Below are positions 24,001 to 48,588 of a DNA stretch of 64,000 bases, piece after piece. Made by a program: the position numbers and the translations under genes. Under the pieces are notes generated by a model. That model did no database searches. It was not told the DNA's origin and was given only the letters and a program-made list of their open reading frames with translations. The DNA comes from a virus. The stretch lies in the IMG/VR virus record IMGVR_UViG_3300036939_000014, positions 1 through 64,000 of that record; one strand, written 5' to 3'. Every line of letters begins with the position of its first letter. Positions within the stretch are counted from its first letter, which is position 1.

Positions 24001-24258
24001 CTGGGTTATGAAAAGATTAGTGATGCTAGCGTAAGACTTTTAATGGAGTTCTATCAAAAAAGCAGAGGTAAGGAGATTCCTTTCACTCTGCCCTTAAATA
24101 TTATTCAACATCCTACTGTGATGCTCGTTGCTCTGACTAATCTGACCGCTACAACTTATTGGAGATTTAGTGATGCACCCAACATTGAAACCTTTAATGC
24201 AACATTACAGCGGGGACTATATAAAGTTGACGTGACGATTCAGAGCGTAATAAACTAA
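21070..24258 (+). CDS. large virion-associated protein, possible polysaccharide depolymerase with gpM/DUF2460-like C-terminus
   Basis: ATG 21070; alpha/alpha-toroid-like segments at both ends of the central region; last ~130 aa (F..P.F....F..GTEQR...L..FY..SRGK..PF) resemble the TIGR02217/DUF2460 tail family. Confidence 0.35.
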   Translation: MALPFVPATLQNQLALARIFLETYTRDEFPFMMNSLHVIRNNFHSLLAGGRGGYFWDSAGPTEGQALMAKACFMAARASGDVAWRSKGIQVTEALVNYFYLDPIPTSPTSPADPLWLSHWLINAGPGAVPSKGLPADNPFEMGHFFEPFQFTNGVAQLPAMLADVYKVATTDAEPSFKSVFAPLKSGSLYPFSYWVANLSLSGRNFRVFADTATAGGTPPQETNEPAGKVVLTSNFTGTALVTYSVYRPDIPIGVNKLGEPYPLWYPIERAGLPTYLGCAWDAQWWAWDAFKEAFDATGDNKWKRAADATKYSAINAATVDNPSYYYPKSTDTNPFSYPGTQVVTANNRTLAVGSRVVGTIHDRFLRVDAPTKDSPAVDPDFEFPSYEVQNFIVLTQFDTSTTRVMVECAHSRGSVQTNFVYDGIIEIVLSTSQNSQDFSQNFKCPLVPPSGNGILTKVLVRTDFLRWSSARNIWWSTAADDPIYTYFGGGATITKVVQQEMINGNTALVWRVNMNVSATGSFAGFGFPLIHAQTADPPGFMYAQVGTTRIKLSDSNDVDFFCDLPDTGGNWQYFKPSFSQFSGTGTPVGTLTNIQIVSKSVTSSTRIWYVGEPAEPLPPGIVYKASAVSRTKVAHTFWVGDFKPLNNNLDTLLYNPGVVSFTVNTIETAAGSGIRVKDSWGGPPYTGYQDAYHWYVWGYPQRSSQVVTFIKDAQNAYTRQSSARIRGLVAPVFLWAYWDSADFKIYSDNQINVFTFSGPDPNTRWAPYTYRAMEALARYLFANPNDQTARGVLTAFFRFILNYYKASGSNRAITDIPPVVNPQVNYREPHASALICRAALYANVAGLEPAVTYELIERTLQDMDEQFQSTGVMAGSWTGGQPTFVHNSITYNEAFLFWQAEQIITLSQLLLLQSSINDASESAYSGVAQAGIYPDLEPQFVRSFEMPAFKQNINRFDEGTEQRIKTSHTGVGTKIVLGYEKISDASVRLLMEFYQKSRGKEIPFTLPLNIIQHPTVMLVALTNLTATTYWRFSDAPNIETFNATLQRGLYKVDVTIQSVIN
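24226..24258 (+). repeat. 3' end of tail gene, duplicated at 24621-24653
   Basis: 29/33 nt identical; encodes VDVTIQSVIN*. Confidence 0.8.
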
Positions 24259-28755: not shown

Positions 28756-28860
28756 CAAACCAAAATCAAATTCTCAATGCTCGCCTTAGCCGTAAGAGAT
28801 GACTCTTACGGCTTTTTGTTGCCTTTGGTAATCTATTACTAAAGACTCAGGTTGAACCCC

Positions 28861-31521
28861 ATGCCTACCCCCAATGCTGTACACAATCTCCTAAAAGACT
28901 TCCGCAAAGAGTATCCAGATTGGGGGTCTACTCCAAGTCCTGAGACGTTGCTGCTCTACAAACTTACCCGTACCATGTCAGGTGTCTCTACAACCCCAAC
29001 AGGCTCTACAGGCGGCATTGCAACAGCAGTTAGCATCATGGGGTCTACAGGCACCACGGTATTAACAGATAATGACGGCAGAATAGTCGTTGCCAACATC
29101 GCTAACCTCTTAGGCAGAATCCCCGCTCTCAGTGATGGCAGAATACCTGTAGGAGTAGTCTTTCCACAAAATCAAAATGTTACTGTGACTAATCAGCTCA
29201 CAGGTGTTGCAACAGAACAAAGTCTTAATGCATTGTTGCAACGCATACCAAGTAGTACCAACAACAGGTTGCCAGTAGCAGTAGAGTTTCCAGGGAATCA
29301 GCAGGTAACGGTAAGCAATCAATTAACGGGGTTTGCCACACAAGCTACGTTAGGGAATATTCTCACTAAGCTTGACAGTTTCAGCACAGATGCGGCGAGC
29401 GAGCAGACCTTACAGGACATCTTGACTAATCTGCCACTGAGTATTGCTGGAAGGGTGCCTGTAAGTCTTGACACGTCCTCTTTTAGTGTGACCAATCAGA
29501 TACAGGGTTATTCCACTGAAGGCACCCTAAAAGCCCTTCTGGATAAGACTCCGACCTTGACGGAAGTACAGCAGTCATTAACGGAAATACGAAACAGATT
29601 ACCAGAGTTAGATCAAGGCAAGGTTCCCGTAGCTTTTACGGCTCAGGCAAATATCACCGGGTTCAGTACTGAAGAAACACTAAGCGCTCTGCTCAATAAG
29701 ACTCTTGCTCCGGTAGACGGTAAATTACCAGTTTCGTTAACGTTTCCTTCCAATCAGTCAGTCACAGTAAGCAATCAGCTTTCTGGTTTTGCTACTCAAG
29801 AGACACTGGCGAGCATTCTTAATAAGTTGGCAACTCCCGTTAATGGTAAAGTACCAGTTTCGTTAGAATTTCCAACTAGTCAGCAAGTTACAGTAAGTAA
29901 TCAACTTGACATTGCTGCTTTGGGCAAAGATGCGACTCTTACAAATATTCTTAACAAGGTTCCTGCTGCTGTTGATGGGAAAATACCAGTATCTTTAACA
30001 TTCCCAACTAATCAAGCAGTAACGGTCAGCAATCCTATTGATGTTTCAGGATTAGGTAAAGACGCCAGTCTTGTCAATATTCTTAATAAGCTGCCAACTG
30101 TTGTTAATGGTAAGTTACCTGTCGCTTTAGACTTCCCACAGAATCAATCAGTTATTGTCACCAATCAGCCAGCACCTTTAGACATTTCTGGACTAGGTAA
30201 AGACTCAACGCTTGTGAGCATACTAGGTAAACTTCCAACGTTGGTAAACGGTAAAACTCCAGTGGAGTTCCCAGCTAATCAGACGGTAACGGTCAGCAAT
30301 CCTAGTGATATGTCTGCATTGGGAAAAGAAGCCACACTCACAAGCATTCTTAACAAGCTTCCTACCTTAACCAATGGCAAAGCACAAGTAGTTTTAGACT
30401 TTCCTGTCAATCAGACCGTTACCGTAAGCAACCAGCCTACGCCCTTAGATATTTCAGCACTGAGCAAGGATTCCACCCTAACTAACATCCTCAATAAACT
30501 GCCTACACTAATTAACGGTAAGACCCTTGTTGATTTTCCGACTAATCAGACAGTGACAGTCAGCAATCAATTAGACGTAAGCGCTTTAAGCAAAGAATCA
30601 ACGCTCACGTCTGTCCTTAATCGTCTCCCTGTTGACCTCAGTAAAGCGATCGCCTCAGGTTTTAGGTCAGAGTTCACCTCAGCCAGTCCACTTGCTACAA
30701 CGCTGCCTAGCCCGGTCTTAAACGATTCGCCGTTATGGACTATTGCTCGCACTAAAAAGGCGGAAGGTCAGGACTCTTTTGTAATGACCTGCTTAGGGCG
30801 TCGGTTAGCGACATTTGCAGCAGGCTTTACTGACATTGTAGAATTTGACCTTCAAACAGTAGGCAACAACTTAAGAAGCCCTACACTTACGGGCATACAT
30901 CCCGTTGAGATTCTGTCCTCTAATGCTGCTGACTCTTCTACAGGTACAGGCATTAGAACCATTGAGATAATGTATCTTGACGAGAATTACGTACTCAAGA
31001 CAACTGTGGTTACTATGGCTGGCACTACTGCTGTACAAGTGCTTAAGGATGGTGTAGCAATCAAGCCCACCTGTATTTTGAAGATGCAAACTACCAGCCA
31101 CGGTTCATCAGCGGGTGCTGTTGGTACCGTGATCTTAAGAACACCAGCAGGGTCATTTGCGGCAATCGCAGCACCAGTTGATCAGATTAGTGTAGGCTTT
31201 ACCTCTAGTTTCTCTGCCAGAACTTGTGTGCCTGAAGGCTACTTGGGTTATGTAGTAGACATTTCAGGGGTAGGCATTACAGCTAATCATGACTTTCATC
31301 TGCTCGCCACAGTGGCACAGTCAGATAAGCGACTCTTAGACGGTGTGTTCAGTAGTCTAGATTTCTTTACGGCTAACGCTGGCACACTTCCAGTAAACCG
31401 TGATGAGTTCTACTATGAATTGCCAAGTCGTTGTAGGGTAAGGCTTGCAAGTCGCAGCAGCAGTACTACTGCGAGTGCAACGGGTAGTTTTACTGTAGTA
31501 TTTGTGAAGAAGCCTGTATAG
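28861..31521 (+). CDS. tail fibre-like protein with ~13 tandem repeats
   Basis: ATG 28861; repeats of L..ILNKLP...NGK.PV.L.FP.NQ.VTVSNQ (38-47 aa) followed by a ~290-aa non-repetitive C-terminal domain. Confidence 0.55.
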   Translation: MPTPNAVHNLLKDFRKEYPDWGSTPSPETLLLYKLTRTMSGVSTTPTGSTGGIATAVSIMGSTGTTVLTDNDGRIVVANIANLLGRIPALSDGRIPVGVVFPQNQNVTVTNQLTGVATEQSLNALLQRIPSSTNNRLPVAVEFPGNQQVTVSNQLTGFATQATLGNILTKLDSFSTDAASEQTLQDILTNLPLSIAGRVPVSLDTSSFSVTNQIQGYSTEGTLKALLDKTPTLTEVQQSLTEIRNRLPELDQGKVPVAFTAQANITGFSTEETLSALLNKTLAPVDGKLPVSLTFPSNQSVTVSNQLSGFATQETLASILNKLATPVNGKVPVSLEFPTSQQVTVSNQLDIAALGKDATLTNILNKVPAAVDGKIPVSLTFPTNQAVTVSNPIDVSGLGKDASLVNILNKLPTVVNGKLPVALDFPQNQSVIVTNQPAPLDISGLGKDSTLVSILGKLPTLVNGKTPVEFPANQTVTVSNPSDMSALGKEATLTSILNKLPTLTNGKAQVVLDFPVNQTVTVSNQPTPLDISALSKDSTLTNILNKLPTLINGKTLVDFPTNQTVTVSNQLDVSALSKESTLTSVLNRLPVDLSKAIASGFRSEFTSASPLATTLPSPVLNDSPLWTIARTKKAEGQDSFVMTCLGRRLATFAAGFTDIVEFDLQTVGNNLRSPTLTGIHPVEILSSNAADSSTGTGIRTIEIMYLDENYVLKTTVVTMAGTTAVQVLKDGVAIKPTCILKMQTTSHGSSAGAVGTVILRTPAGSFAAIAAPVDQISVGFTSSFSARTCVPEGYLGYVVDISGVGITANHDFHLLATVAQSDKRLLDGVFSSLDFFTANAGTLPVNRDEFYYELPSRCRVRLASRSSSTTASATGSFTVVFVKKPV
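29090..30640 (+). repeat. in-frame tandem coding repeats (~13 units of 114-141 nt) in the fibre gene
   Basis: Recurrent ...aataagct(g/t)cc(a/t)ac...aatggtaa...gtaac(g/a)gt(c/a)agcaatca... Confidence 0.8.
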
Positions 31522-32078: not shown

Positions 32079-32303
32079 ATGAAAGCACGAACACCAAAAC
32101 TTAATCTAGAGCCTTTGGCAATAGAGTCTGTGAACATTCAGCAATTTATCCTTAACGACTGTGCAACTTATGCTGAGGCTGCACAGTTCTTTGGAGTAGA
32201 CACTTCTACTGTCGGACGTTGGATGATGGGAGTTAAGAAGCCTCATCCAGCTTGTTACACGGCTGTTGCAGCTTACAAGAAGCTACAAGAGGTGGCAGCA
32301 TGA
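32079..32303 (+). CDS. HTH DNA-binding protein
   Basis: YAEAAQFFGVDTSTVGRWMMG helix-turn-helix; AAGGAG SD. Confidence 0.5.
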   Translation: MKARTPKLNLEPLAIESVNIQQFILNDCATYAEAAQFFGVDTSTVGRWMMGVKKPHPACYTAVAAYKKLQEVAA

Positions 32304-32755
32304 ACAAACCTGATAAGTTCCCCGCTTATTGGATTAAGTTGGCTGTGGATCAGGTTTACGGGACTGAGGTTGCATCTTCCACTTGGCGTAAGTGGTTGCG
32401 CTTGTTTGACGTTAAACCTAGGAGTCATTACCTCACAGTTGAGCAATCCATTTTTTTACTTACCTATGCTCACCTAAGACGCTACAAGCCAAATAAAGGG
32501 TTGGGCGTTATTGATGTTAAAAATCACCTCAAGGCTTATCCTTATGCTCTAAAGACTTTTAAAGAGCAGGTTGAGCAGGCGTTATTTATTGAAACAAAAG
32601 GGCGTGATATGCCTACACTTATTCGTCAGTACACAGGTAAGACAGTCACGCTTAGAACTCTGTACAGATGGGCTAAAAGGCATAAGCTAGAGTTTGGAGT
32701 TAGCAAGCCTATACTTAAGCCTGAACTTAAACGATGGCTTGACATTGCGAGCTGA
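32300..32755 (+). CDS. hypothetical protein with C-terminal HTH-like segment
   Basis: ATGA overlap with upstream ORF; VTLRTLYRWAKRHKL. Confidence 0.5.
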   Translation: MNKPDKFPAYWIKLAVDQVYGTEVASSTWRKWLRLFDVKPRSHYLTVEQSIFLLTYAHLRRYKPNKGLGVIDVKNHLKAYPYALKTFKEQVEQALFIETKGRDMPTLIRQYTGKTVTLRTLYRWAKRHKLEFGVSKPILKPELKRWLDIAS

Positions 32756-32843: not shown

Positions 32844-33149
32844 ATGGACAAAGTAATTAGAGACGGTAAAGTAGCGGTATTGTACAGTCCTGGTTATGGT
32901 TCAGGATGGTATTCTTACCACAAAGTAAGAGAATTATTGTACCACCCTCATATCGTCGAGTTGGTTGAGCAGGGGCGCAGAGAGGATATTACAGAAGACT
33001 TAGTAAAAGGTTTGGGTTTCGCAAATGTGTATTGTGGAGGTGCGGAAGATTTAAGGATTGAATGGATACCTGAAGGCGTTCAATTTAAAATTTCCGAATA
33101 TGACGGCTTTGAAAGCTTTCTGTTTGAAGAGGAGTGGTTAACAGCTTAA
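32844..33149 (+). CDS. hypothetical protein (101 aa)
   Basis: Promoter 32788-32816; terminator 33175-33201. Confidence 0.55.
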   Translation: MDKVIRDGKVAVLYSPGYGSGWYSYHKVRELLYHPHIVELVEQGRREDITEDLVKGLGFANVYCGGAEDLRIEWIPEGVQFKISEYDGFESFLFEEEWLTA

Positions 33150-33174
33150 AAAAAACAATATAAATTGCCAGCTA

Positions 33175-33201
33175 AAGCCGTCCACCAAGGACGGCTTTTT
33201 A
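33175..33201 (+). terminator. rho-independent terminator
   Basis: GCCGTCC-accaa-GGACGGC plus T5. Confidence 0.7.
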
Positions 33202-33229
33202 GTGGAAATATTCGCCAAAACCCTCGAAA

Positions 33230-33640
33230 AATTGCCGCAAAACTTTTTGAAACTTACCGTAGCGGTTTAGCTTGTGACACTAGAAGTATAAAGGTTTGAG
33301 ACTATTTTTAAACAAAATGCCATTCTCAATAAGGGCAAAATAAGCTCAAATAATTGAGAATGCTACAGTCAACCGCCATAAGTCAAAATACTACATGGCT
33401 TAAATGCTTTCTTTGATTGAGTCCTAGCGTTTCGTCGTCTGTGACACTAGAACCATAAGGGTTTGAGCTGAATTCGCTACAGTGTCACAAGCTCAAACCC
33501 TTGATTTTGCGTGTCACGCTACAGCACTTTTTAGAAGCTGAAAATTTTTTGTGACATTTTTAGACCGAATTGCCTTGTGCAATAGCAATTCAGTGATTCA
33601 CTGCAATACAGTAGATTCAGTGAACAGAAACCACAAAATC
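33230..33640. repeat. iteron / inverted-repeat-rich non-coding region (candidate ori, clt or pac-like site)
   Basis: Direct TGTGACACTAGAAnnATAAnGGTTTGAG at 33273-33300 and 33440-33467; 13-bp stem GGGTTTGAGCT/AGCTCAAACCC; GTGTCAC/GTGACA copies; CATTCTCAAT/ATTGAGAATG stem; no ORF. Confidence 0.5.
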
Positions 33641-33642
33641 AC

Positions 33643-34173
33643 ATGAACAGGATTAAGGAATTACTACAAGCACAGGGCAAGCAGATAGCCGACAGTGCTA
33701 TCGAGGCAAAGTTAGCAGAGTATGGATTGAATGCGGACAAGGTAAGTGAGGCTGATGCCAAGACAATTGCTGAAGAGTTGGCACCACTAGCTCAGACGAT
33801 TAGCGGTCTAGCTGTAAGTAATGGCAATCCTGCACCAGCTACAGCATCTAAAGGCGGCAAACCAGCCAAGAAGGGACGCACAAAAAAGCTAAAGAACGAA
33901 GTCGATGAGAGTGCATTCAATGAGAGCATCACTCACCTTGCTCATGTAGCTAAAGCTGAGATTGACGTTGTTACTCATGAATTACAAGCGGGTGCTGACG
34001 CCTGGAAAGAGCAGACCAAGCAGGACTGGAAAGAAATCATCCTCAACACTCCTGTAGAGGCGATGAACGAGATGCTTGACGAGGTTCGGGAGGAGGCACC
34101 TGATATTGCCGGGTTTCGCAAAACTACTCAATCTGCGGTTAGAACTGTTTTCCCACTTCGCACTGCATCTTAA
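33643..34173 (+). CDS. hypothetical protein (176 aa), first gene after iteron region
   Basis: Lys-rich central linker; starts a co-directional 7-gene block. Confidence 0.55.
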   Translation: MNRIKELLQAQGKQIADSAIEAKLAEYGLNADKVSEADAKTIAEELAPLAQTISGLAVSNGNPAPATASKGGKPAKKGRTKKLKNEVDESAFNESITHLAHVAKAEIDVVTHELQAGADAWKEQTKQDWKEIILNTPVEAMNEMLDEVREEAPDIAGFRKTTQSAVRTVFPLRTAS

Positions 34174-34247
34174 GCCACCTAATTACCTAGTCCTTTTAGG
34201 CGTAATTCACTCACTACTTTTACTGATTACTTTTGGAGCAATAATTC

Positions 34248-34562
34248 ATGGACAACTACAAGGAGGAAACGACAGAGAAGACAACAGTAAAGTTCACAGT
34301 CGGCAAGAATGGCGAGCTTGAGTTCAAGTCAGACGGTCTTGACCCTTGGCAACAAACTGAAGCCATAGGACAAGCTCGCCAGCTAGCCAACGGCAATAGT
34401 GTCCGTCAAATCAAAATTACTGAGATACAAGCAACTACAGCAATCGCTAGTCACATCATTATGGGGAGCTTCTTAACCCTGTTGGTGTTTGGCACAACCT
34501 TCAGCTGTAGCAGATTAGTTTCAACTCAAGTCAATCAACCCGTACAGCAGGTTACAAAATGA
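34248..34562 (+). CDS. membrane-anchored protein (C-terminal TM)
   Basis: IIMGSFLTLLVFGTTF hydrophobic helix. Confidence 0.5.
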   Translation: MDNYKEETTEKTTVKFTVGKNGELEFKSDGLDPWQQTEAIGQARQLANGNSVRQIKITEIQATTAIASHIIMGSFLTLLVFGTTFSCSRLVSTQVNQPVQQVTK

Positions 34563-34888
34563 CAGAACACGAAGACGAAAACTCATTAGAGGATTCTACT
34601 GAATCAATACCCTTAGGGAGTTTCGAGATACAGGATTATGCAAACAGACTCTCTGTCACAGCTGACAATGTTAATTCTTACGATGTCATCTATCTACTAG
34701 AGAGAGCTTATGAGATCAGAAAGGAAAATCCACAATATCAAAGAAGTAATCCCGCAACAGCAGCAATGGGGATAATCATATTAGCCATTGCGATCGCCGC
34801 TCTAATCGGCTCAACTATCGGAATAATCAGAGACTATCCAAAGCTACATCAACAAATTACTCAGCCCATTATGGAGAACAACAAATAA
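34559..34888 (+). CDS. membrane-anchored protein (C-terminal TM)
   Basis: ATGA overlap; AAMGIIILAIAIAALIGSTIGII. Confidence 0.5.
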   Translation: MTEHEDENSLEDSTESIPLGSFEIQDYANRLSVTADNVNSYDVIYLLERAYEIRKENPQYQRSNPATAAMGIIILAIAIAALIGSTIGIIRDYPKLHQQITQPIMENNK

Positions 34889-35328
34889 TGCTAGGCGGAT
34901 TCATTACTTTTAATCAAAGCGGTACGGTCTACGGGGCAGCATTAGCCTCAGGTGTTGACCCCACAAACATGGCTCATATTGAGAAATCAGCTAAAGGGAC
35001 AATCAAAACCAACAGCAAGCTAAAGCTGGTTAACAGTCCTGACACAATCCTCAAGAATGCCACAATCAATCGTCAGCTAGAAGTCCAGAACGACCTTATG
35101 AAGCAAGCCTCAGACGTACAAATAAAAGGAATGCGAGCAGCTGTTGAACGCTTGCGGATTGGCAGACAACACCGTAAAGCGGCAATGGGTATTGAGACAG
35201 ACTTCCAGAAAGAAATGGCGGGTGTTACAGAAGACTTGCTCGCTTTCAGAATGGCAACAGGCATGATTCAAGCTGAGTCAGTCGGAACCCAAAAAGCTTA
35301 TAAGTCTAGTCGCTTTGCAGGGTTGTAA
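34888..35328 (+). CDS. hypothetical protein (146 aa)
   Basis: TAATG overlap coupling. Confidence 0.5.
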   Translation: MLGGFITFNQSGTVYGAALASGVDPTNMAHIEKSAKGTIKTNSKLKLVNSPDTILKNATINRQLEVQNDLMKQASDVQIKGMRAAVERLRIGRQHRKAAMGIETDFQKEMAGVTEDLLAFRMATGMIQAESVGTQKAYKSSRFAGL

Positions 35329-35331
35329 GCC

Positions 35332-35610
35332 ATGACTATGAGTAGATTCATGCTTGGTCTGATTGCAACTATACTCGCCAGTGGTCTTCTACTTGCTCAA
35401 CTTGCTGCCTCTTTCGCAGTTATCAGATTCGGCTGTATTGTTCTACTGTTCGCCATGTTCCTAGGGATTGCAATTGATGCAGCAATCGATAAAGCTAAAG
35501 CTTCAGCACAAGGCTATGACGGTGAACTGATTACTGTTATTACACCTCACATAGGGTATGCAATAGTACTGACATTCTTAATCATTGTGGGGGTTGCAAT
35601 CGGATTATGA
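35332..35610 (+). CDS. polytopic small membrane protein
   Basis: Three hydrophobic segments in 92 aa. Confidence 0.5.
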   Translation: MTMSRFMLGLIATILASGLLLAQLAASFAVIRFGCIVLLFAMFLGIAIDAAIDKAKASAQGYDGELITVITPHIGYAIVLTFLIIVGVAIGL

Positions 35611-35807
35611 GCAGAGGAGGAAGGAACGGTATCGGGATACAGGTAGCCAACAAATTATTTGAGGATGTAGGCATAACTTTTACAGACCTTAAAAAGACTA
35701 CAGGTGGCTACCTTGCAACCCACGCAAACGGAACAACCACACTACAGAGGGCAACAGTAACCGAACTAACCAAACAAGTCATTAACTCTTGGTTTGTACT
35801 CAAATGA
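35607..35807 (+). CDS. hypothetical protein (66 aa)
   Basis: ATGA overlap; terminator 35813-35835. Confidence 0.45.
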   Translation: MSRGGRNGIGIQVANKLFEDVGITFTDLKKTTGGYLATHANGTTTLQRATVTELTKQVINSWFVLK

Positions 35808-35856
35808 CACACAGCCCCGTTAAAGGGGCTTTTTAGTAACTATAAGGAGATACACA

Positions 35857-37347
35857 ATGTTATTTCAGACAGAGCGAGCAGCATTAAAACCCACAAGTAT
35901 TATTGCTAACGCTTATGATGCAATATTCCTAAGCACAGCTGTTGTGACAATTGGCAGCAGCTTAATGTTTAGTGGCACTCTAGACAAAATCAGCAAAGCC
36001 CTACTGACTTCTACTGGAGTCGCTAGCCTAAGCTGTTACACCATTAATTGCAAAGCGACTGAGAGAGTCAGAAAAGTTAACAAGGCTTTTGAAGATGCCC
36101 AGATGGACTCTATGAAATACACTCTTGCTGAAGAGGAAGAAGTCTATCAACTTAAGGCTCAAATACAAGGCGCAACCCGCAAGGTAGAAGTGATACTGAA
36201 TGAGTCTGAGCCGTGGGAATGGCAACATTGGGCAAGACAAGGTGAAGTGGTTGAGGTATTCCCTCCAGCGCAAGAACTGACTGGCGAACAGGTAGAACAA
36301 CCGACTATTCAGCAGCATCGCACTGTAAACACTCAAGAAGTAGTTTTTGAGCAGGAAATGCCAGATTTAGCCAAGCAATTGGCTGATGATATGAAGAATT
36401 CGCTAATTGTAGGTGTGCCTGGTAGCGGCAAAGGTCTATTAGTCAGCAACGCTCTACAACACGTTCAGAACCGAGGTGACACCACAGTCTTTTATATTGA
36501 CCCTAAGAACGATAAACGCGAGACAGGTTACTTTACAGGACGCGTCAATCATCTATTTAGATTGCCTGGTGGAATTATCAAAGCTAAACCTATTGAGGTT
36601 TATCACTGGTTATTACAATGCATGGAAGCCTACGAAAACTTTGATTGTGGTAACGGTCGCAAGCTCTTAGTTTTAGATGAGATGACAGCGCTCATGATGA
36701 AATTGGCGAACGTACCAGCTAAGGTTACTGGCACTGTAAAGGGTGATGCTTGGCTAACAGAAGAAGTTGTGACGCGAGCAGCAGCAGGCGATAGTGCAGG
36801 CGGAACAATGTGGGGCATTGCACAGAACGGTCACAATACTGGAGTGGGAATGGATGGTGGGGCTAAGTCCCAATTAACCCCCATTGCACTCATCAGTATC
36901 AAACAGCTTCCTGCTAGTCAAGCTCTGCTTAAAGCTGACTTTGTACCAAGTGACCACAAACTTAGCAGCAATGAAATCAAATACATTTGCGAGCAGTCCC
37001 CAATTGGACGCGCCATTTTTCACGGTGGCTTAAACAATTGGTATCCGATGCCAGTGCTACCTAACCCGTCAGGCTATGACAGAGATAATCGTAAAGCAAT
37101 CGAGCAGCCAGCAAGAGATAGCGAGTCTACAGGCGTTAAGACGACCGTTGTAGAAGAAATTCCCGCAGACCATAATATTCCCGGTATCAACAGCATTCAC
37201 GATCAGATGGTTGCATGGATGCAATCACTAGAGACAATGCCCAATCCAAAACAGGTCAAGGACAAGTGGGAGTCTCTAACTGGTCAAGAGATGTCTATTA
37301 AAGCACTCAAGGGAATGCTTATCGCTTTAGGACTTGAAAAGCCATGA
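35857..37347 (+). CDS. membrane-anchored FtsK/SpoIIIE/TraB-like P-loop ATPase
   Basis: N-terminal TM helices; Walker A VGVPGSGKG; FYIDPKND (FtsK-type DPK); Walker B LLVLDE. Confidence 0.5.
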   Translation: MLFQTERAALKPTSIIANAYDAIFLSTAVVTIGSSLMFSGTLDKISKALLTSTGVASLSCYTINCKATERVRKVNKAFEDAQMDSMKYTLAEEEEVYQLKAQIQGATRKVEVILNESEPWEWQHWARQGEVVEVFPPAQELTGEQVEQPTIQQHRTVNTQEVVFEQEMPDLAKQLADDMKNSLIVGVPGSGKGLLVSNALQHVQNRGDTTVFYIDPKNDKRETGYFTGRVNHLFRLPGGIIKAKPIEVYHWLLQCMEAYENFDCGNGRKLLVLDEMTALMMKLANVPAKVTGTVKGDAWLTEEVVTRAAAGDSAGGTMWGIAQNGHNTGVGMDGGAKSQLTPIALISIKQLPASQALLKADFVPSDHKLSSNEIKYICEQSPIGRAIFHGGLNNWYPMPVLPNPSGYDRDNRKAIEQPARDSESTGVKTTVVEEIPADHNIPGINSIHDQMVAWMQSLETMPNPKQVKDKWESLTGQEMSIKALKGMLIALGLEKP

Positions 37348-37480
37348 AAAGTCTAAAGCAAAGCTTCAAAGTCGCATTTATCACCCTATTGTTTTCTCTT
37401 GCATTTGGAATTCATGTCACTATTATCACAACTGTCATGGAGCTAAACTTACTTGCAACAGAAGAAAGAGGGACAGGCAG

Positions 37481-37810
37481 ATGACCTTTTACCCTAATCT
37501 CAACTGGGATGTACGTTACCCGCCTAATTGGTCTGACATCAGGCGAGCGACTCATGAAGCTACAGGCGGCATCTGCTGCTGTTGCAAACAGAATCTAAGC
37601 ACAGAAGTTCATCACAGTCGCTACCTTTGGAAGGGTGACACACCGGGTAGTAATATTTTCGGGTTGTGCCAATCCTGTCATAAATTAAGTCATTCTGAAC
37701 AACACTGGATTAAGCACAAAGGTAATCCACTTTGGAAGAGTCGCAACACTGAACAATGGGAGGCAAAGCTTAGAGCAGGATTTAATGACCTAAAGAGAAG
37801 ACCTCTATGA
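37481..37810 (+). CDS. HNH endonuclease-like protein
   Basis: ATG 37481; CCCCKQ..STEVHHSRY...LCQSCHKLSH; paralog of the next gene. Confidence 0.55.
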   Translation: MTFYPNLNWDVRYPPNWSDIRRATHEATGGICCCCKQNLSTEVHHSRYLWKGDTPGSNIFGLCQSCHKLSHSEQHWIKHKGNPLWKSRNTEQWEAKLRAGFNDLKRRPL

Positions 37811-37941
37811 AACAATTCTTAGCTCGATTATTCCTTGAGTTACTATTAATGGCTGTTTCTATAGATTCCCCTGTAGATGCAGCCATTTTTGTTACTATTG
37901 TCCACATTCAATCAATGGAGTACGTCAATGGTTAGCAACAA

Positions 37942-38355
37942 ATGAAAAAGCATAAAAATCTTAAGAAACGTAAACAGAAGACCACAAACACAATTGAGTT
38001 TAGACCCAAGAATGAATATGACTGGACTGTCCGTTATGGCAATCTGGATGACTACCGGGTGCTATGCGCCCGCACTCATGCTGCCACTTATGGGAAGTGT
38101 TGCGTATGCCTTACAGCAAAAAGTGAGGTAATTCATCACAGCCGATACTTAGGTGACGAAGACAAACCAGGACTAAACGTCTTTGCCTGTTGCTCTAGGT
38201 GCCACCGTAAAAGGTGTCACTCTAAGTCTAATTGGGTGTGGGATAACAAGAACCCTGTATGGGGTAACCACAACACCGCTGGTTTTGAGAAACGACTTCA
38301 GACTGGCTACAAGATACTGAGTGCGAGTGGAAGCATCAAGATAACTCCCGTCTGA
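37942..38355 (+). CDS. HNH endonuclease-like protein
   Basis: CCVCL...SEVIHHSRY...CCSRCHRKRCH; immediately followed by an element copy. Confidence 0.55.
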   Translation: MKKHKNLKKRKQKTTNTIEFRPKNEYDWTVRYGNLDDYRVLCARTHAATYGKCCVCLTAKSEVIHHSRYLGDEDKPGLNVFACCSRCHRKRCHSKSNWVWDNKNPVWGNHNTAGFEKRLQTGYKILSASGSIKITPV

Positions 38356-38357
38356 TA

Positions 38358-38462
38358 GGCTTATGCTCGAAATCGACCTCTAAGCCTTACTGGGGATGAC
38401 TTAGAGCCACCGACACCACCAGGATATTAACTAGAAATGAAAGCTAGAGGTGTCGGTTTTAC
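38358..38462 (+). ncRNA. structured repeat element E14 (core only, compensatory stem variant)
   Basis: Starts 3 nt after HNH stop; CTCGAAATCGACCTCTAAGCCTTAC core; stem CCGACACC/GGTGTCGG plus TTTT. Confidence 0.6.
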
Positions 38463-38696: not shown

Positions 38697-39077
38697 TTAT
38701 TCAGTCACGCTGCTTGCCTCCTGAGTGGCACTGGTTACTTTCTTAATTGTCCATCCCCTGTAGGGTTTGCCCCAACGGATGTACTGTTGAACCGAAGGAT
38801 AAGGTAAGTCCTGCTCTGCACACCATTCAGGTAAGTCTGTAATTGTGGTCTGCTCACCTTCAGGACTAATAGCCACGTAAGTCCTCAGCCGTGATTGCCT
38901 ACCTTTCTCTATCATTGCCTCACGGTTAGATTCCCATTCCCGTGCAAGTGGTCTTTTAACAGGCTCGCTAAGGGCTTGCTCTAATGAGATGCCTTTTCGT
39001 AGTCGCGAGTAGACAGTTCGTGGCTTTAAGCCGTGCTGTAGGGCTAACTGATAGACGTTAGGTGTTTCCTTAGGCAT
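38697..39077 (-). CDS. HTH-domain protein, paralog A
   Basis: MPKETPNVYQLALQHGLKPRTVYSRLRKGISLEQAL; about 60 percent identical by eye to 39070-39426. Confidence 0.55.
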   Translation of the reverse strand: MPKETPNVYQLALQHGLKPRTVYSRLRKGISLEQALSEPVKRPLAREWESNREAMIEKGRQSRLRTYVAISPEGEQTTITDLPEWCAEQDLPYPSVQQYIRWGKPYRGWTIKKVTSATQEASSVTE

Positions 39078-39426
39078 TGCTTGGCACCTTTTTGATAGTC
39101 CAGCCCTTGTAAGGCTTGCCTCTACGGCTGTAAGTGCTAACAGATTTATAGTTCAACCCTTTTTCAGCACACCACTGTGGCAAGTCTGTAATTGTTTCTT
39201 CCTTCCCTTGAGGACTGATTGCAATGTAAGTCTTTAGTTTAGAGAGTCTCCCTTTTTCAATCATCGCTTCACGATTTAATCTCCATTGTTGTTGGATAGA
39301 ACCCTTAAGAGGCTCGCTTAAGGCTTCCTCAAATGTCATTCCTCTGCGTATTCGGGCATAGACAGTATAAGGATTAAAGCCGTGTTGCAATGCCAATTGA
39401 TAGACGTTTGGTGTGGTTTTAGGCAT
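39070..39426 (-). CDS. HTH-domain protein, paralog B
   Basis: MPKTTPNVYQLALQHGFNPYTVYARIRRGMTFEEAL; overlap-coupled. Confidence 0.55.
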   Translation of the reverse strand: MPKTTPNVYQLALQHGFNPYTVYARIRRGMTFEEALSEPLKGSIQQQWRLNREAMIEKGRLSKLKTYIAISPQGKEETITDLPQWCAEKGLNYKSVSTYSRRGKPYKGWTIKKVPSNA

Positions 39427-39715
39427 CTTGATTATCCTTATTTACTTTTCCCTTAAAGCAATGGTGTAAAGGGTCATTTAGTGCCTGTTCTAATGACAGA
39501 CCTTTACGCAGTCGAGCATAAACAGTGCCTGGTAATAAACCAGATTTCAAAGCCAGCTGATAGACATTTGGTTTATCCTCTTGAAAAGTTTTTACAGCTT
39601 CTTCAGCCGACAAACCTGTTCGTTTCATTCGTGCATAGAGGGTTTTTGGTTTAATGCCGTTTTCAATAGCAATCTGGTTAGCTGTTTTTTTGAGGGGGCG
39701 TTTAGTTCTTGACAT
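39419..39715 (-). CDS. tandem double-HTH protein, paralog C
   Basis: Two copies of the A...G..P.T.YAR...G.S.E.A motif. Confidence 0.55.
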   Translation of the reverse strand: MSRTKRPLKKTANQIAIENGIKPKTLYARMKRTGLSAEEAVKTFQEDKPNVYQLALKSGLLPGTVYARLRKGLSLEQALNDPLHHCFKGKVNKDNQDA

Positions 39716-44294: not shown

Positions 44295-46202
44295 ATGGAA
44301 CATCCAGTAATACAGCGAATACAGCATGAGTTACAAACCAAAGACTACTTGCAGCAGCTTTACCCTCATCAAAAGAAAGCTTACCTAGAGATAGCCTTGG
44401 AGTACATCAAGGGCAAGAAAGCACCAGTGTTTCAAGCTGTGACGGGGTATGGTAAAAGCCAACTAGCTAGGGCAATAGTTCGCAGCACTTATGAACGGAT
44501 GATAGAGAAAGACCCTAATAATATTCGCAGCAAGATATTGTGGCTAGGTAAAAATGACCACATTCTGACAAACGCTTATGAGCATCTTTTAGGTGTGGGA
44601 TTACCTGCAAGTGACATAGGAATAATTAAAGCCTATAAGAGCGCATCAAAGTATCCTTTTGAGCCTGCCAAAAAAATCCAAATAGCGAGTATTCAAACTC
44701 TACAGTCTTGCTGGGATGATTGGAAAGTCCGAGGTTTGCTTTACATGATGGACTTCCAGTTCATTGTCATTGATGAGTGTCATAACTTCTGCAACCGCTC
44801 AAAGCTTTATAGTGGCATTATTGAACACTATCCTCATGTGCGTAAGTTAGGATTAACAGCAACGCCTTATCACAAGGCAGGACTTAACGAGAACTTTGAC
44901 ACCCTAATAATGTCACTCACCCAGCGCGAGTTAGCTCACATGGGTTATCAGCCTTTCTGGGAAACATTTGGTACAGACTCCCCCGTAGACCGCAAGACTC
45001 TAACAGTAGGTGCTGATGGTGAGTACACACAAAAGTCTGCAAAGAAAGCTGCTGATGCAATAGCAACCAAACATGGCGACATCGTTAAGAGCTGGCTGCA
45101 ACACGTTGGCAATCGATATGGTCATGTTCCTACAATACTGTTTGCTGAAAGCATCCAACACAGCAAAGATTATTGTCAGTACATTAATGATGCTGAATTG
45201 GTAGTTAATAATAAGCCGCTGCGAGCCGTTCACATCGATGGCACCATGAAGTCATGGGAGATGGACAAAGTTTTTGAAACCATTCTTACTCGTGAAGCCA
45301 CAATATTATGTAACTGTGCAAAGTTCTTGGAAGGTCTAGACTTAGCAACAGTGGCAGAGTCTAGAGGATTTCCTAAACTAGCCTTTGGTTGTGTTCAAGA
45401 CATGACGTTTGTCAATAGCATCAATAGACATAAGCAGAAGGTTGGACGCGCCAGAGGCTTCTACTGGGGGGGCAAACTTATTGCTATCTACTTAGACCAT
45501 GTGGGTGCCAGTGAGGAGCATGGTGACCCTGACACAGTATTTGAGTGGAGTCTAGATGGTACACCCAAGAAAGCACCCGGAGAGAAGCCCGTTAAATTGT
45601 GCCCACCAGAGGATAGGGGTTGTGGTAAATACATTCTACGCTTGCTAATGCAATGCCCTCATTGTGGTTATGATGGATTTCCACAACAACTAGAGGAAGA
45701 ATTAGAGCCTGAAGACTTACATGATAAAGATGCTGAATTGGTCAGATTAGAACGTACTAACTTAGACCACTTTCAATTCATGCTCAAAACTCAAGAGACT
45801 AAGGGATGGGCAATCGGTGAGTTCGTCAAGTACGCTCCAACCTATGAGGAAATGTTACAAGCTTGCAAGTTAGCTGACTATGATTGCTCACTGGCTTTGC
45901 AAAGATGGGTAGAAGGGCAACGTATCGCCTTACAGTCTTATGATTGGTTGCCAGAATTTCAGACGGTGTTAGACATCCTCAAAAGCCTTACAGACCTCTG
46001 CAATCAAAAGCCCTGGAAAAAAGCAAAGGCAATCAAACCATTGCACACCTATCGTGTATGGGTCAGTCTAATGAGGCGAGCAAATGGCTCAGGATGGAAA
46101 CCTAGCATGGAGGAACTGTTACAAATTCAGAACGCTTGCGGATTCTCAAGCAAATGGGCATGGGCAGAAAGTCAACAACAGATCGCTAGAAGAGGAGCAT
46201 GA
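44295..46202 (+). CDS. SF2 DEAD/DEAH-box helicase with C-terminal zinc ribbon
   Basis: AVTGYGKS (Walker A), VIDECHNF (DExH), GLTATP (motif III), CPHCGY. Confidence 0.8.
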   Translation: MEHPVIQRIQHELQTKDYLQQLYPHQKKAYLEIALEYIKGKKAPVFQAVTGYGKSQLARAIVRSTYERMIEKDPNNIRSKILWLGKNDHILTNAYEHLLGVGLPASDIGIIKAYKSASKYPFEPAKKIQIASIQTLQSCWDDWKVRGLLYMMDFQFIVIDECHNFCNRSKLYSGIIEHYPHVRKLGLTATPYHKAGLNENFDTLIMSLTQRELAHMGYQPFWETFGTDSPVDRKTLTVGADGEYTQKSAKKAADAIATKHGDIVKSWLQHVGNRYGHVPTILFAESIQHSKDYCQYINDAELVVNNKPLRAVHIDGTMKSWEMDKVFETILTREATILCNCAKFLEGLDLATVAESRGFPKLAFGCVQDMTFVNSINRHKQKVGRARGFYWGGKLIAIYLDHVGASEEHGDPDTVFEWSLDGTPKKAPGEKPVKLCPPEDRGCGKYILRLLMQCPHCGYDGFPQQLEEELEPEDLHDKDAELVRLERTNLDHFQFMLKTQETKGWAIGEFVKYAPTYEEMLQACKLADYDCSLALQRWVEGQRIALQSYDWLPEFQTVLDILKSLTDLCNQKPWKKAKAIKPLHTYRVWVSLMRRANGSGWKPSMEELLQIQNACGFSSKWAWAESQQQIARRGA

Positions 46203-46203
46203 A

Positions 46204-46449
46204 ATGTTCCTACCGGGCGATCGCTTTCAAATTTACTATGATGACTGGCTGCTTAAAGTCCATCCGGAAGGTTTCAGGCACCCTAGAGTAGGCAGCTATC
46301 ATAAGGTTTGGATTGAGGTCTTCAGACTCTACCTAGACACAGCTGGTGATTATGCTTATGTCTGTAGACACTGTGATTGCAAAGAGGTAGATAGCGAGCG
46401 AAGCGACCGTGAGTTTGTAGTCAGACTTGGTGAATTGGCTTTTAAGTGA
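46204..46449 (+). CDS. hypothetical protein (81 aa)
   Basis: ATG 46204 directly after helicase stop; terminator 46467-46510. Confidence 0.5.
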   Translation: MFLPGDRFQIYYDDWLLKVHPEGFRHPRVGSYHKVWIEVFRLYLDTAGDYAYVCRHCDCKEVDSERSDREFVVRLGELAFK

Positions 46450-46466
46450 GAGGACGGTTTAACACT

Positions 46467-46510
46467 AAAATAATACCCGCTAACTATTCCAGTTAGCGGG
46501 TATTATTTTC
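46467..46510. terminator. bidirectional terminator
   Basis: 15-bp stem ATAATACCCGCTAAC/GTTAGCGGGTATTAT flanked by A and T runs. Confidence 0.75.
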
Positions 46511-46523
46511 TAAGCAAAAATTA

Positions 46524-47303
46524 TTACTTAGGTCGTATCATCTGCTTGGCTTTTTTAATGTGTGCAACTTTTACCGCTTGCAATGGGTGGAGGTTGTCAT
46601 CATCTATCAAATCTGTAACATTAGCCTCAGCACGATCTATTAAAGCCAAGTCGTCAATGCTGCAATAGTCCCTTATCTTATTGCGAGGGCAACCTAAGAT
46701 TGATTCTAGTTGCATTGCATCACGACCCCATAGCCTTTGATAAATCTGATTCGTGACTATTGAAATCAAACGACCCATTTCAGAATACGGCTCATTAATA
46801 TCGTTAAGATACCACCATGCCTTTATAGAATCGGTAAGTGATCGCCTTGTCTTTTTACCCGAAGCTCGTATCTTGCACCATTCTTTTAAAAACTCTAGTT
46901 TGTCTTTCTCTGCCTCTTCTGTTATTGCAGAGAAGTCCCCGTTAATTACTCCCCATAGAACTTTGTTAGCTTTAAGCTCAAATTCAGGACTAATCCAGAC
47001 AGCAAGGCTTAAAGCTATCAGGTGATGTCCCCATGTGCTTTGTTGATCGGCTGAAAATGCCTTTCCTCCACCGCGTATTTCAACGATTAAAGCGGATATG
47101 GGAAATCCCGTATCCGTTGACAAACAAGAGGTATAGGCTTTTGTGCGCTTAAGTCTTAGAAAGTCAGCTAGCTTCTTTTTGCCAGCTTTGCACATCTCAG
47201 TAAGGTTTACATAACCTTTAGGTATCCGATATTGCCCTATAAAAAAATCTTCGCTAGCTTGTGAAACGTTCAGCCCGTCAAATGAATGTGGTAAGATGCT
47301 CAT
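46524..47303 (-). CDS. KilA-N domain DNA-binding protein
   Basis: GYVNLTEMCKAGKKKLADFLRLKRTKAY resembles KilA-N. Confidence 0.55.
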   Translation of the reverse strand: MSILPHSFDGLNVSQASEDFFIGQYRIPKGYVNLTEMCKAGKKKLADFLRLKRTKAYTSCLSTDTGFPISALIVEIRGGGKAFSADQQSTWGHHLIALSLAVWISPEFELKANKVLWGVINGDFSAITEEAEKDKLEFLKEWCKIRASGKKTRRSLTDSIKAWWYLNDINEPYSEMGRLISIVTNQIYQRLWGRDAMQLESILGCPRNKIRDYCSIDDLALIDRAEANVTDLIDDDNLHPLQAVKVAHIKKAKQMIRPK

Positions 47304-47397
47304 TGTGAACCTATGTCGTGATATGGTTTGCCGTGCCGCAGAGCGTCAACTCGTGCGGTCTTAATTATTTTACCATCCATTAACGAATAAAGAAAAT

Positions 47398-47682
47398 ATG
47401 AATAGCACCAAAGTTACCCAAGAAGAAGTGACCGCTCTACTTAACTCAGCCGACATTGAAGAAGCTGTGTTGTTCGGCGCAACACTAGTAGTTGCGTATC
47501 AGTTCCCATCATTAGGTGGATGGACTGTCAGAGGCGAAGGTTCTGTGGTAGACCCTAACAACTTTGATATTGAAACAGGACGCAAGTATGCTAGAGAACA
47601 GGTAGAGCATAAACTATGGCAGCATTTGGGATTTGTCAAGCAATTGGAATTAGCTGGACTTATTCAGTGGATTAAGCCATAA
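47398..47682 (+). CDS. Gp49-like phage protein
   Basis: 94 aa; G.G.SVVDP.NFD.E.GRKYAREQ...KLW pattern resembles the N4 Gp49 / Sf6 Gp66 family. Confidence 0.4.
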   Translation: MNSTKVTQEEVTALLNSADIEEAVLFGATLVVAYQFPSLGGWTVRGEGSVVDPNNFDIETGRKYAREQVEHKLWQHLGFVKQLELAGLIQWIKP

Positions 47683-47699
47683 CTAACTAAGCAGGGATA

Positions 47700-47736
47700 G
47701 CGCCAACTACATTTAATCCCTACCAGGGATTGAAAT
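47700..47736 (+). other. solitary CRISPR-repeat-like 37-mer
   Basis: GCGCCAACTACATTTAATCCCTACCAGGGATTGAAAT: hairpin TCCCT-acc-AGGGA followed by ATTGAAAT. Confidence 0.35.
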
Positions 47737-47811
47737 TGCTCGCTCTTTGTAAGCGTTAATATTCCCGCTAAAGCCCTCTAGATTCTAGAGGGCTTTTAAA
47801 ATACCTTTATG

Positions 47812-47830
47812 TTGACATTTGGGTAAAACT
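47812..47830 (+). promoter_or_regulatory. box promoter
   Basis: TTGACA-tttggg-TAAAAC. Confidence 0.55.
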
Positions 47831-47865
47831 GGCTAGGATAGTAAGAGAAGTTAATTAAGGTGATT

Positions 47866-48518: not shown

Positions 48519-48561
48519 GCTACTGATTACGATAAGCTTTAGACAAATCTGTTTGTCTTGC

Positions 48562-48587: not shown

Positions 48588-48588
48588 G

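Follow-up and report, generated by a model that had tools for sequence, protein, structure and literature searches.

Introduction

Transfer of double-stranded DNA (dsDNA) by a single FtsK-like protein of the TraB type is treated as peculiar to mycelial actinomycetes (PMC4170104, PMC4447253). TraB hexamers bind 8-bp clt repeats through their C-termini (PMC4447253, PMC4170104), and clt is located at or next to the 3' end of traB (PMC4447253). The spd operons consist of three to seven short and diverse genes whose stop codons overlap the next start codons, some of them encoding membrane proteins; the target of SpdA is a short palindrome that plasmids otherwise divergent have in common, and SpdB2 homologues are known in actinophages (PMC4447253, PMC4170104). 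Conjugation in cyanobacteria is almost unstudied, and the plasmid pCC7120alpha is the model for an MPF_C type IV system (PMC4027160). Here, a locus around positions 33230-37347 of a 64,000-nt stretch of viral DNA (positions 1 to 64,000 of the IMG/VR record IMGVR_UViG_3300036939_000014, hereafter the window) was analysed, in which a repeat array is followed by an operon of six small genes (g1 to g6) and a gene for a membrane-anchored ATPase (g7), with two small helix-turn-helix (HTH) genes, up74 and up167, upstream of the array (Table 1). We tentatively read it, as a possibility that falls short of probable, as a conserved cyanophage module made of a membrane-embedded, ATP-driven nucleic-acid motor and a cis-acting DNA site.

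The likeness of this operon to the TraB/clt/Spd system of Streptomyces (pSVH1, pIJ101), which serves conjugative dsDNA transfer and intramycelial spreading, is one of architecture only, with one membrane-anchored FtsK-like ATPase and overlap-coupled short genes, in a host that is in both cases a multicellular filamentous bacterium. In contrast to TraB/clt, the window has palindromic repeats, which precede the operon at a distance of 2.3 kb from the start of the ATPase gene and are next to the HTH genes, whereas the ATPase has a predicted three-helix tail and no winged helix. The carrier is also different, being a tailed phage, not a plasmid or an actinomycete integrative and conjugative element, and the phylum is Cyanobacteria.

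Results

The g7 protein comprises one or more N-terminal transmembrane (TM) helices followed by a long coiled helix (residues 1-128), an FtsK-like core of the ASCE/RecA fold (about residues 165-418) and, in its AlphaFold2 (AF2) model, a short three-helix C-terminal domain (444-490). An earlier interpretation made from the DNA letters alone (the sequence-only reading) had listed its ATPase motifs, which were all located: Walker A (G186xxGxGK192), I214-D-P-K217 and Walker B (D274-E275). Walker A, IDPK and Walker B (DE) are invariant or nearly so in the homologues, and an AQN sensor-like motif is conserved in them. The AF2 models (pLDDT 79.7 for the full protein; pLDDT 88.8 and pTM 0.88 for the core) show a RecA/ASCE core with long helices before it and three helices after it.

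The same reading had called the protein FtsK/TraB-like, and profile comparison upheld this, as it appears to be a remote relative of the FtsK/SpoIIIE/TcpA/TraB motors, which came ahead of Rho/F1. When a 133-sequence profile of the core was aligned with hhalign to a six-sequence reference (E. coli FtsK, pCW3 TcpA, the Streptomyces pSTS2 TraB-like protein and FtsK-like proteins of Enterococcus, Bacillus and cyanobacterial plasmids), the match reached 96.9% (E 1.5e-10, 152 columns), compared to 90.3% (E 1.5e-6, 111 columns) against a Rho/AtpA/AtpD/FliI set; the FtsK and Rho sets, aligned to each other as a control, gave 32% (E 4.9e-4, 45 columns). The 152 columns extend from Walker A to the strand that comes next after the Q motif; in register are GxxGSGK, IDPK, a conserved Trp in the next helix, hhhhDE with '(A/T)xLM' behind it, and '(A/T)Q(N/R)'. 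With single sequences as targets, hhalign gave 4.8% for TraD of the F plasmid and 1.9% for TcpA. As in FtsK/SpoIIIE (PF01580), an N-terminal membrane anchor and a linker precede the ASCE motor, and GxxGSGK, (I/V)DPK, a Trp in the following helix, hhhhDE and a Gln after the next strand are shared; unlike in FtsK/SpoIIIE, the alpha/beta two-subdomain match does not extend past the 152 columns, and the protein is without a gamma domain.

Family libraries gave sub-threshold signals. PF01580 was absent for the window ATPase at E <= 1 and was hit by 9 of 83 family members (best E 0.0037, below the gathering threshold); the NCBIfam model plasmid_TraB (NF041214) scored 14.7 bits against a cut-off of 800, over residues 181-232 only; in the search for models of type IV coupling proteins (T4SS-DNA_transf, TraG-D_C, TrwB), the only hits were TrwB_AAD_bind, below threshold in 5 of the 83 members, and SXT_TraD at E 0.003. 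The non-generic hits of this kind were mostly of the FtsK-HerA/conjugation type (FtsK_SpoIIIE, AAA_10, DUF87, TrwB, Pox_A32, SXT_TraD, plasmid_TraB and VirB4). In searches of PDB sequences by phmmer and by profile, only P-loop noise such as ORC4 was found. Identification as a large terminase was rejected, the only sign of it being a weak PHROG P-loop hit (E 0.09) with no match to any nuclease or terminase model.

The structural comparison proposed in the sequence-only reading gave a mixed answer: Foldseek against PDB did retrieve FtsK (2ius, 6t8b) and TcpA (6o1x, 6o1w), but Rho and RecA appeared at similar E-values, so that structure taken by itself points to a RecA-fold NTPase of the ring-translocase kind and no more. 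Among viral structures in BFVD, the named matches were mostly FtsK-like or A32-like packaging ATPases; the top match was A0A482MIE7, an uncharacterised 712-aa protein of Nodularia phage vB_NspS-kac65v161 (14% identity, TMq 0.56), and a tblastn search with the protein P0028, aimed at the context of the Nodularia phage, gave no match. On sequence comparison, we place the ATPase in the FtsK-HerA assemblage as a divergent member that is closest to FtsK/SpoIIIE/TraB and belongs to no curated family.

TcpA (pCW3) and VirD4/TraD/TrwB are likewise membrane-anchored ASCE ATPases, coupling a DNA-protein complex to a membrane channel. Unlike for these type IV coupling proteins, no relaxase or VirB4 gene is found among the conserved neighbours of the module, and no type IV secretion genes are annotated within about 10 kb of the pCC7120alpha module. 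The A32-like and PRD1 P9-type packaging ATPases belong to the same superfamily, are virus-encoded and account for many of the viral structure matches; in contrast to them, the window belongs to a tailed phage with a portal, and its ATPase has TM helices and is encoded in a membrane-protein operon away from the head genes. Tailed phages with a portal package their DNA by means of a terminase.

With the core profile (residues 163-418), 693 representatives (clusters at 50% identity) were found at E <= 1e-3 among 1.84 billion clusters, 247 of them below 1e-30, and the matches listed span nearly the whole profile. A word-based search returned 62 homologues, none with a functional name and all those with an organism given coming from filamentous cyanobacteria. 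The ATPase belongs to a sizeable family without a name. Its description as part of a plasmid-style module agrees with where the family lives, which is on cyanobacterial plasmids and other mobile elements: tblastn with the window ATPase matched 23 of 72,556 plasmids, all of them cyanobacterial and nearly all from Nostocales, pCC7120alpha included, and had no match in the 50,697 phage genomes deposited. When one genome of each species was scanned, 80 loci were recovered from plasmids and chromosomes, in many cases several from the same genome, nearly all cyanobacterial and mostly from Nostocales; IMG/VR contributed 11 loci.

Closest to the window are five metagenomic phage contigs (L001 and L005-L008) with ATPases 59-82% identical to that of the window, L005 having the closest one (82%). 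The other four contigs share one gene order, with a 72-75-aa HTH protein, a protein of about 150 aa, a gap of about 500 nt, the operon (170-180, about 106, in places 43-49, 148, about 90 and 62-66 aa) and the ATPase, often followed by two HNH-like genes. In the Nostoc plasmids pNFSY06 and pNPM1 (L012 and L013), the module lies inside ERF/BRO-type prophage-like regions, which encode homologues of g1 (23-24%), of up167 (38%) and of the HNH-like protein, and an ATPase whose C-terminal domain is common to the window protein.

A further relative is found in an isolated, culturable phage, Aphanizomenon phage vB_AphaS-CL131 (MG209611.1, 88843-93040; L119), where gp113-gp108 repeat the layout of the module: proteins of 187, 120 (TM), 145, 167 (polytopic) and 99 aa (multi-TM) precede a 641-aa ATPase. 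The phage infects a filamentous cyanobacterium as well, and it carries an up167 homologue, gp121, nearby. The CL131 ATPase joins a window-type C-terminal domain to a variant core (43% identical to the family protein P0026), so it differs from the window in core type; no match in CL131 was obtained by tblastn with the window core, and no GTGWCAC array was found within 6 kb of its module. All these genes (gp113-gp108 and gp121) are annotated as hypothetical and are undiscussed in the CL131 genome paper. The HIP1-type palindrome GCGATCGC is very dense at 8100-11800 of the CL131 locus, reaching six copies in 300 bp; the cellular loci often have it too, and it was masked in the repeat scans.

This variant core is a deeply divergent sister ATPase core, flanked like the core of the window protein by the N-terminal TM domain and the C-terminal three-helix domain, and it is carried by P0026, P0038, L012 (9622-11169), L013 (10378-11919) and CL131 gp108 (L119 5506-7431). 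In hhalign it matched the FtsK set at 95.5% (E 1.6e-8, 84 columns), the window core family at 93.3% (E 2.7e-7, 147 columns) and the Rho set at 18.5% (E 1.3e-3, 41 columns). Window-type ends surround yet another core in P0023. The motor domain has been exchanged within a fixed N- and C-terminal frame.

Clustering of the neighbours of 101 loci revealed a conserved operon in the cellular loci, consisting, in order, of c7 (an HTH-like protein of 143 aa), c6 (a soluble one of 236 aa), c4 or c25 (138-158 aa; TM segment or signal at the N-terminus), c3 or c19 (polytopic, 225-238 aa) and the ATPase. A ParM/ALP-type actin-like gene (c27; L103 4538-5557) is often located 2-3 kb upstream of the cellular modules, and tyrosine-recombinase, ERF and AIPR genes are frequent neighbours.

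To look for repeats at the 3' end of the ATPase genes, 7-mers were counted from -150 to +250 around the stop codon in 86 loci and in 2,515 background windows. At least five copies of one 7-mer were present in 18 of the 86 loci, compared to 1.6% of the background windows, and at least seven copies in 11, compared to 0.5%. The 7-mer is specific to the lineage and occurs 5-14 times, as in CGCCACA (seven copies at +6 to +175 in Fischerella plasmid5), GTCAACA (eight), ATTACCG (six), GACAGAA (seven) and GGTGTAA (14). In one lineage (L084, L091 and L093, 8795-9029), six or seven copies of CGAAACG were found, in both orientations, not behind the stop codon but inside the coding sequence of the ATPase C-terminal domain.

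When the loci were divided by the length of the tail (long meaning at least 91 residues after the SGYDRD motif) and scanned from -300 to +250, a 7-mer cluster was present in 24 of 33 long-tailed loci but in only 1 of 51 short-tailed ones (Fisher p 1.3e-12, not corrected for phylogeny). The long tails show a helix-helix-helix-hairpin sequence pattern that appears winged-helix-like, and together with the 3' 7-mers the long-tailed layout is that of TraB/clt. Among the short-tailed proteins are those of pCC7120alpha, of the window and of its phage relatives. Where a short-tailed locus has enough sequence upstream, a c7/up74-type HTH gene is in most cases encoded there at a distance of 2.4-3.9 kb, and the window and several of its short-tailed relatives also have an upstream repeat array. 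Upstream of c7, a 6-mer (usually TATTGA) occurs at least five times in 12 of the 29 c7-bearing loci, mostly short-tailed, compared to a background rate of 2.4% of windows.

The repeats, hairpins and genes that the sequence-only reading had described were all recovered at their positions (Table 1). It had placed no open reading frame (ORF) in 33230-33640, which holds for most of the region, although a mechanical 44-aa ORF (33165-33299) overlaps its start. The two 28-nt direct repeats are 89% identical and 167 nt apart; there are exactly two, a third copy being absent from the window at up to three mismatches, and shuffled sequences gave none. At least five heptamers had been counted, and these are GTGACAC or its complement in four cases and GTGACAT in the fifth. 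Four of the 11 exact GTGACAC copies of the window are packed in 244 bp, and the shuffle expectation for the whole 64 kb is a mean of 5.7 and a maximum of 10. The unit GTGWCAC is a 7-bp palindrome, and its boxes occur in both orientations with a spacing of roughly 29-40 nt. The repeated CGCTACAG is present twice as described, but that number on its own is not above chance (43 of 100 shuffles); both copies abut a GTGWCAC box.

Four of the related phage contigs and two plasmids of Nostoc have the array as well. In L001 and L006-L008, boxes with a spacing of about 29 nt are kept, the gaps holding GTGACA or TGTCAC boxes of which two, 28-29 nt apart, lie at equivalent positions. The 7-8-mers flanking the boxes vary by lineage (window, CGCTACAG; L006, CGCTACGG; plasmid L012, CGGAAGGG), and the third box, TAARGGTTTSA, is likewise recurrent among related loci. 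The array of the two Nostoc plasmids is made of five TGTGACAC boxes and contains an exact copy of the 14-mer CTGTGACACTAGAA. GTGWCAC palindromes and TAARGGTTTSA are conserved across elements whose proteins are only 24-40% identical. No single TnTGACA pattern accounted for both the phage and the plasmid arrays, which have only TGACA in common. Of the known cyanobacterial operators, the sites of NtcA (GTA-N8-TAC) and CRP (TGTGA-N6-TCACA) and the DnaA boxes do not seem to fit GTGWCAC.

The array was seen only where two small HTH proteins are encoded beside it. Upstream of the ATPase of L005, neither the HTH pair nor the array was found within 6 kb, so that array and HTH pair go together. In L012 and L013, the orientation of the array towards the operon is unchanged; it lies between two convergent gene 3' ends, about 1 kb from gene 1, which is not a promoter position, and the HTH pair is inverted and placed between array and g1. 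Since only the HTH pair is inverted in these plasmids, movement of the array with up167 as an inverted unit was ruled out. By analogy, up74/up167 and GTGWCAC may parallel Streptomyces SpdA as a small protein binding a palindrome.

The up74 gene is kept upstream of the module in L001, L006, L007 and L008, and its product matches the HTH of the cellular cluster c7 (83.8% over 20 columns in hhalign), the sole link between the window and the cellular modules at the level of accessory proteins. The up167 protein has two HTH-like 'T-x-x-RW' motifs and weak HTH_33 and HTH_17 hits; its homologues lie beside the module in the same four contigs and in L012 and L013, and its family is tiny, with eight proteins, none of them with a functional name.

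The seven co-directional genes reported earlier were confirmed, with three junctions overlapping by 1-4 nt, and of the three or four small TM proteins then proposed, three were found by hydropathy (g2, g3 and g5). The seven genes, which could be transcribed together, thus encode three soluble proteins (g1, g4 and g6), these three small membrane proteins and the membrane-anchored ATPase, which has a TM segment at its N-terminus by hydropathy. Homologues of g1 are found in the related phage contigs and, over their full length, in three Nostoc plasmids at 23-27% identity. The g2 protein is conserved in the related phages, and its N-terminus matches gp112 of CL131; g4 is present in all related phage contigs; g5 is conserved, and gp109 of CL131 (99 aa) shows a similar multi-TM hydropathy at the same position; g6 has homologues in the related phages and beside the ATPase in a few cellular loci (L052, L067 and L077). 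The variable gene is g3, with no cluster partner among the loci and a 43-49-aa gene in its place in the relatives. In Pfam, PHROGs, PADLOC and NCBIfam, nothing was above cut-off for g1-g7, and the only meaningful hits were the HNH ones for g8.

Putative transcription signals accompany the operon. The terminator-type hairpin that follows a gene ending at 33149 closes the upstream transcription unit. In the promoter-like block, TACAGT-N3-TTCAGT is invariant in the six loci aligned (6/6, L005 included), 20-35 nt before the first start codon, and TACAGT fits the TAnnnT pattern of a -10 element. The hairpin between g6 and g7 may attenuate expression of the ATPase relative to the small genes.

Table 1. 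Positions of the features of the module and of its surroundings in the window.
Feature	Position	Strand	Description
Portal protein	3607-5052		Phage_portal_3, E 7e-54
Tail proteins	11949-14762	-	
Tail proteins	21055-24258		
up74	32079-32303	+	74-aa small HTH protein; sub-threshold SpoIIID, HTH_23 and HTH_28 hits
up167	32300-32755	+	151 aa; ORF can start at TTG 32252
Terminator-type hairpin	33174-33198	+	10-bp stem, 5-nt loop, T run
Repeat array	33273-33557		Five GTGWCAY boxes: 33274, 33441, 33482, 33511 (GTGACAC or complement), 33551 (GTGACAT)
28-nt direct repeats	33273-33300 and 33440-33467		
TAARGGTTTGA boxes in array	33289, 33456		
A/T-rich hairpin	33321-33330 / 33353-33362		10-bp stem
13-bp stem	33457-33469 / 33490-33502		Perfect inverted repeat, loop 20 nt
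CGCTACAG copies	33475, 33517		
Promoter-like block	33589-33621	+	Palindrome CAGTGATTCACTG, TACAGT 33607-33612, TTCAGT 33616-33621
g1	33643-34173	+	176 aa, soluble, basic linker KKGRTKKLK, no TM segment
g2	34248-34562	+	104 aa, one C-terminal TM anchor
g3	34559-34888	+	109 aa, acidic N-terminus, one C-terminal TM anchor
g4	34888-35328	+	146 aa, soluble; no family hit
g5	35332-35610	+	92 aa, three TM segments
g6	35607-35807	+	66 aa, soluble
GC-rich hairpin with T run	35813-35830	+	Between g6 and ATPase gene
g7	35857-37347	+	496-aa ATPase
g8	37484-37810	+	HNH-like small protein, paralogous to g9; PHROG HNH endonuclease, E ~5e-9
g9	37942-38355	+	HNH-like small protein, paralogous to g8; PHROG HNH endonuclease, E ~5e-9
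Helicases and replication protein	44295-62565		

The window is a segment of a tailed-phage genome, with a portal protein and tail proteins. The portal is at most about 27% identical to that of any deposited phage, so that the lineage has no cultured close relative, and a DNA-level comparison of 33000-38400 with the 50,697 phage and 72,556 plasmid records gave no match. The module lies between a tail-fibre-like gene (28852-31521) and the early/replication genes. No Rfam covariance model reached gathering scores anywhere in the window, with only chance-level hits in 33100-33700, and the search for tRNAs was negative, which rules out a known RNA gene in the region. The tail-fibre-like gene encodes an 889-aa protein with about a dozen tandem repeats of about 37 aa ('...NGKxPVxLxFPxNQxVTVSNQ...') and no family hit. 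It probably serves as a tail fibre or in receptor binding, and genes of 843 aa that L001 and L006 have at this position may be its counterparts. Three tandem paralogous small genes on the minus strand (38697-39715; 126, 118 and 98 aa) are built of repeated HTH-like 'PNVYQLALQxGxxPxTVYxRxRKG' units, with two units in the third. Unusual auxiliary genes were seen at 53389-54789 and 19828-20853 (a CHASE3 sensor histidine kinase and a PAPS-reductase-like gene).

Discussion

Site-directed DNA translocation is the best-supported reading of these sequence data. In the mechanism that we propose, up74 and up167 would bind the array, marking the phage DNA, and the three-helix C-terminal domain of the ATPase would dock on the resulting HTH-array nucleoprotein complex; the long-tailed relatives would instead have a winged helix of their own with which to read their lineage-specific 3' 7-mers, in the manner of TraB and clt. 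Together with g2, g3 and g5, the ATPase ring would be held in the cytoplasmic membrane and would pump or anchor dsDNA of the phage, its presumed substrate, there, for purposes such as passing phage DNA between the cells of the filament, pulling in the genome after infection or segregating it. The sequence-only reading had proposed to test whether the ATPase itself binds the repeats; the HTH pair (32079-32755) co-occurs with the array and probably binds it instead. Its analogy with TraB/clt/Spd survives in part: the overlap-coupled, partly membrane-bound operon and the 3' clusters of the long-tailed relatives agree with it, but the window lacks both the long tail and the 3' cluster.

Several results weigh against site-directed DNA translocation. 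No curated family cut-off (Pfam, NCBIfam, PHROG, PADLOC) was passed by the ATPase, and the winged-helix, gamma-like C-terminal domain that was looked for is missing from the model, with no wing in 444-490. The Foldseek matches in PDB lie within about one order of magnitude in E and have TM-scores < 0.5, and because Rho and RecA rank beside FtsK and TcpA, the substrate may also be RNA or protein; the Rho-like signal likewise allows a substrate other than DNA. Around the stop codon of the window ATPase, no 7-mer exceeds three copies and there is no clt-like 3' cluster, and the statistic linking clusters to tail length ignores shared ancestry. The small proteins have no detectable homology to Spd proteins. 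When g1, g2, g4, g5, g6 and up167 were compared by hhalign with 22 accessory clusters of the cellular modules, no homology was found; g1, g2, g4 and g5 are thus without detectable homology to accessory proteins of the plasmid modules, which leaves the Spd parallel as an analogy only. The array is not indispensable to the operon, since L005 retains the operon without it, and in the window it sits where an activator-dependent promoter would have its upstream sites.

This last position leads to the strongest alternative, rather unlikely in our judgement, that the array is only the regulatory region of the operon, with up74 and up167 as transcription factors acting at the TACAGT promoter and the ATPase complex acting elsewhere, for instance in protein export like EssC of the type VII secretion system, in superinfection exclusion or in envelope remodelling. 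The boxes lie about 60-180 nt upstream of the invariant TACAGT/TTCAGT block and after a terminator, the HTH genes adjoin the array, the operon of L005 runs without it, and the plasmid-type TATTGAYA array, directly upstream of the first gene, the HTH-like c7, resembles autoregulation. Nevertheless, neither the array of L012 and L013, between convergent gene ends, nor the repeats of the long-tailed relatives, at the 3' end of the ATPase gene, are in a promoter position, and regulation alone fits poorly with DNA motifs that are kept where the proteins are only 24-38% identical.

It is improbable that the array is a phage replication origin, or an iteron origin of plasmid type, with the membrane operon unrelated to it. 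The repeat unit is a 7-bp palindrome in both orientations and not a direct iteron of 17-22 bp, in spite of the multiple short repeats, the A/T-rich stretch with its hairpin (33300-33365), the adjacent genes for DNA-binding proteins and the homologous arrays on Nostoc plasmids. The array has no neighbouring gene of the Rep, DnaA or primase type, and such replication genes as can be recognised are 11-25 kb away. A local minimum of the cumulative GC skew near 30-32 kb would fit an origin, but it coincides with a switch in gene orientation, and divergent elements keep the array, the HTH pair and the ATPase operon together.

We give an equally low probability to a defence, exclusion or toxin-type system, in which the membrane ATPase and the HNH nucleases would sense or block competing DNA. 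Homologues of g8 and g9 are present in most relatives (L001, L005-L008, L012, L013 and the IMG/VR loci L034 and L037), and in several of them such genes directly follow the ATPase gene, but in L008 they do not, so the HNH-like genes are not an obligatory adjacent partner. The ATPase has a weak PADLOC mad8 hit (E 5e-5) that spans only the P-loop region, the HNH protein has weak ZorE-like hits, and no defence model matches g1-g6. AIPR abortive-infection and toxin-antitoxin genes near the cellular modules and the multi-copy state of the gene in genomes would also suit defence, which leaves the conserved repeat arrays and the 3' clusters unexplained.

Most improbable of all is that up74 and up167 are a small-terminase-like pair, the array a pac or cos site and the HNH protein an aid in cleavage, with the ATPase operon merely adjacent: the HTH proteins do come after the tail genes, where the late region ends, there are HNH genes nearby as in HK97-type cos phages, and no large terminase gene was found beside the portal gene within the window, but up74 and up167 have no terminase family hit beyond generic HTH matches, the array, up167 homologue and operon of the Nostoc plasmids lie beside ERF and BRO and not packaging genes, and the whole operon separates the HNH genes from the array.

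A wider proposal, which we regard as unlikely, is that filamentous cyanobacteria and their mobile elements have an unrecognised TraB-like dsDNA transfer system in two forms, of which one may be cis-reading (a winged helix with lineage-specific 3' 7-mers) and the other adaptor-based (separate HTH proteins with an upstream array), the latter having been captured by tailed phages of Nostocales. A DNA-transfer system of the TraB/clt type has not been previously described in cyanobacteria. If the module proves instead to be a regulated membrane complex acting on another substrate, it would still be a conserved, unannotated core block in a phage lineage without a close sequenced relative. If the proposal is true, Streptomyces conjugation and spreading would have a counterpart, convergent or of ancient common origin, in a second lineage of multicellular bacteria, and a TraB/clt-like signature in a second multicellular phylum and its phages would surprise specialists. 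The operon of pCC7120alpha ending in WP_010999624, gp113-gp108 of CL131 and the array and HTH pair of the window are testable candidates, which could address how DNA moves between or within cyanobacterial filaments.

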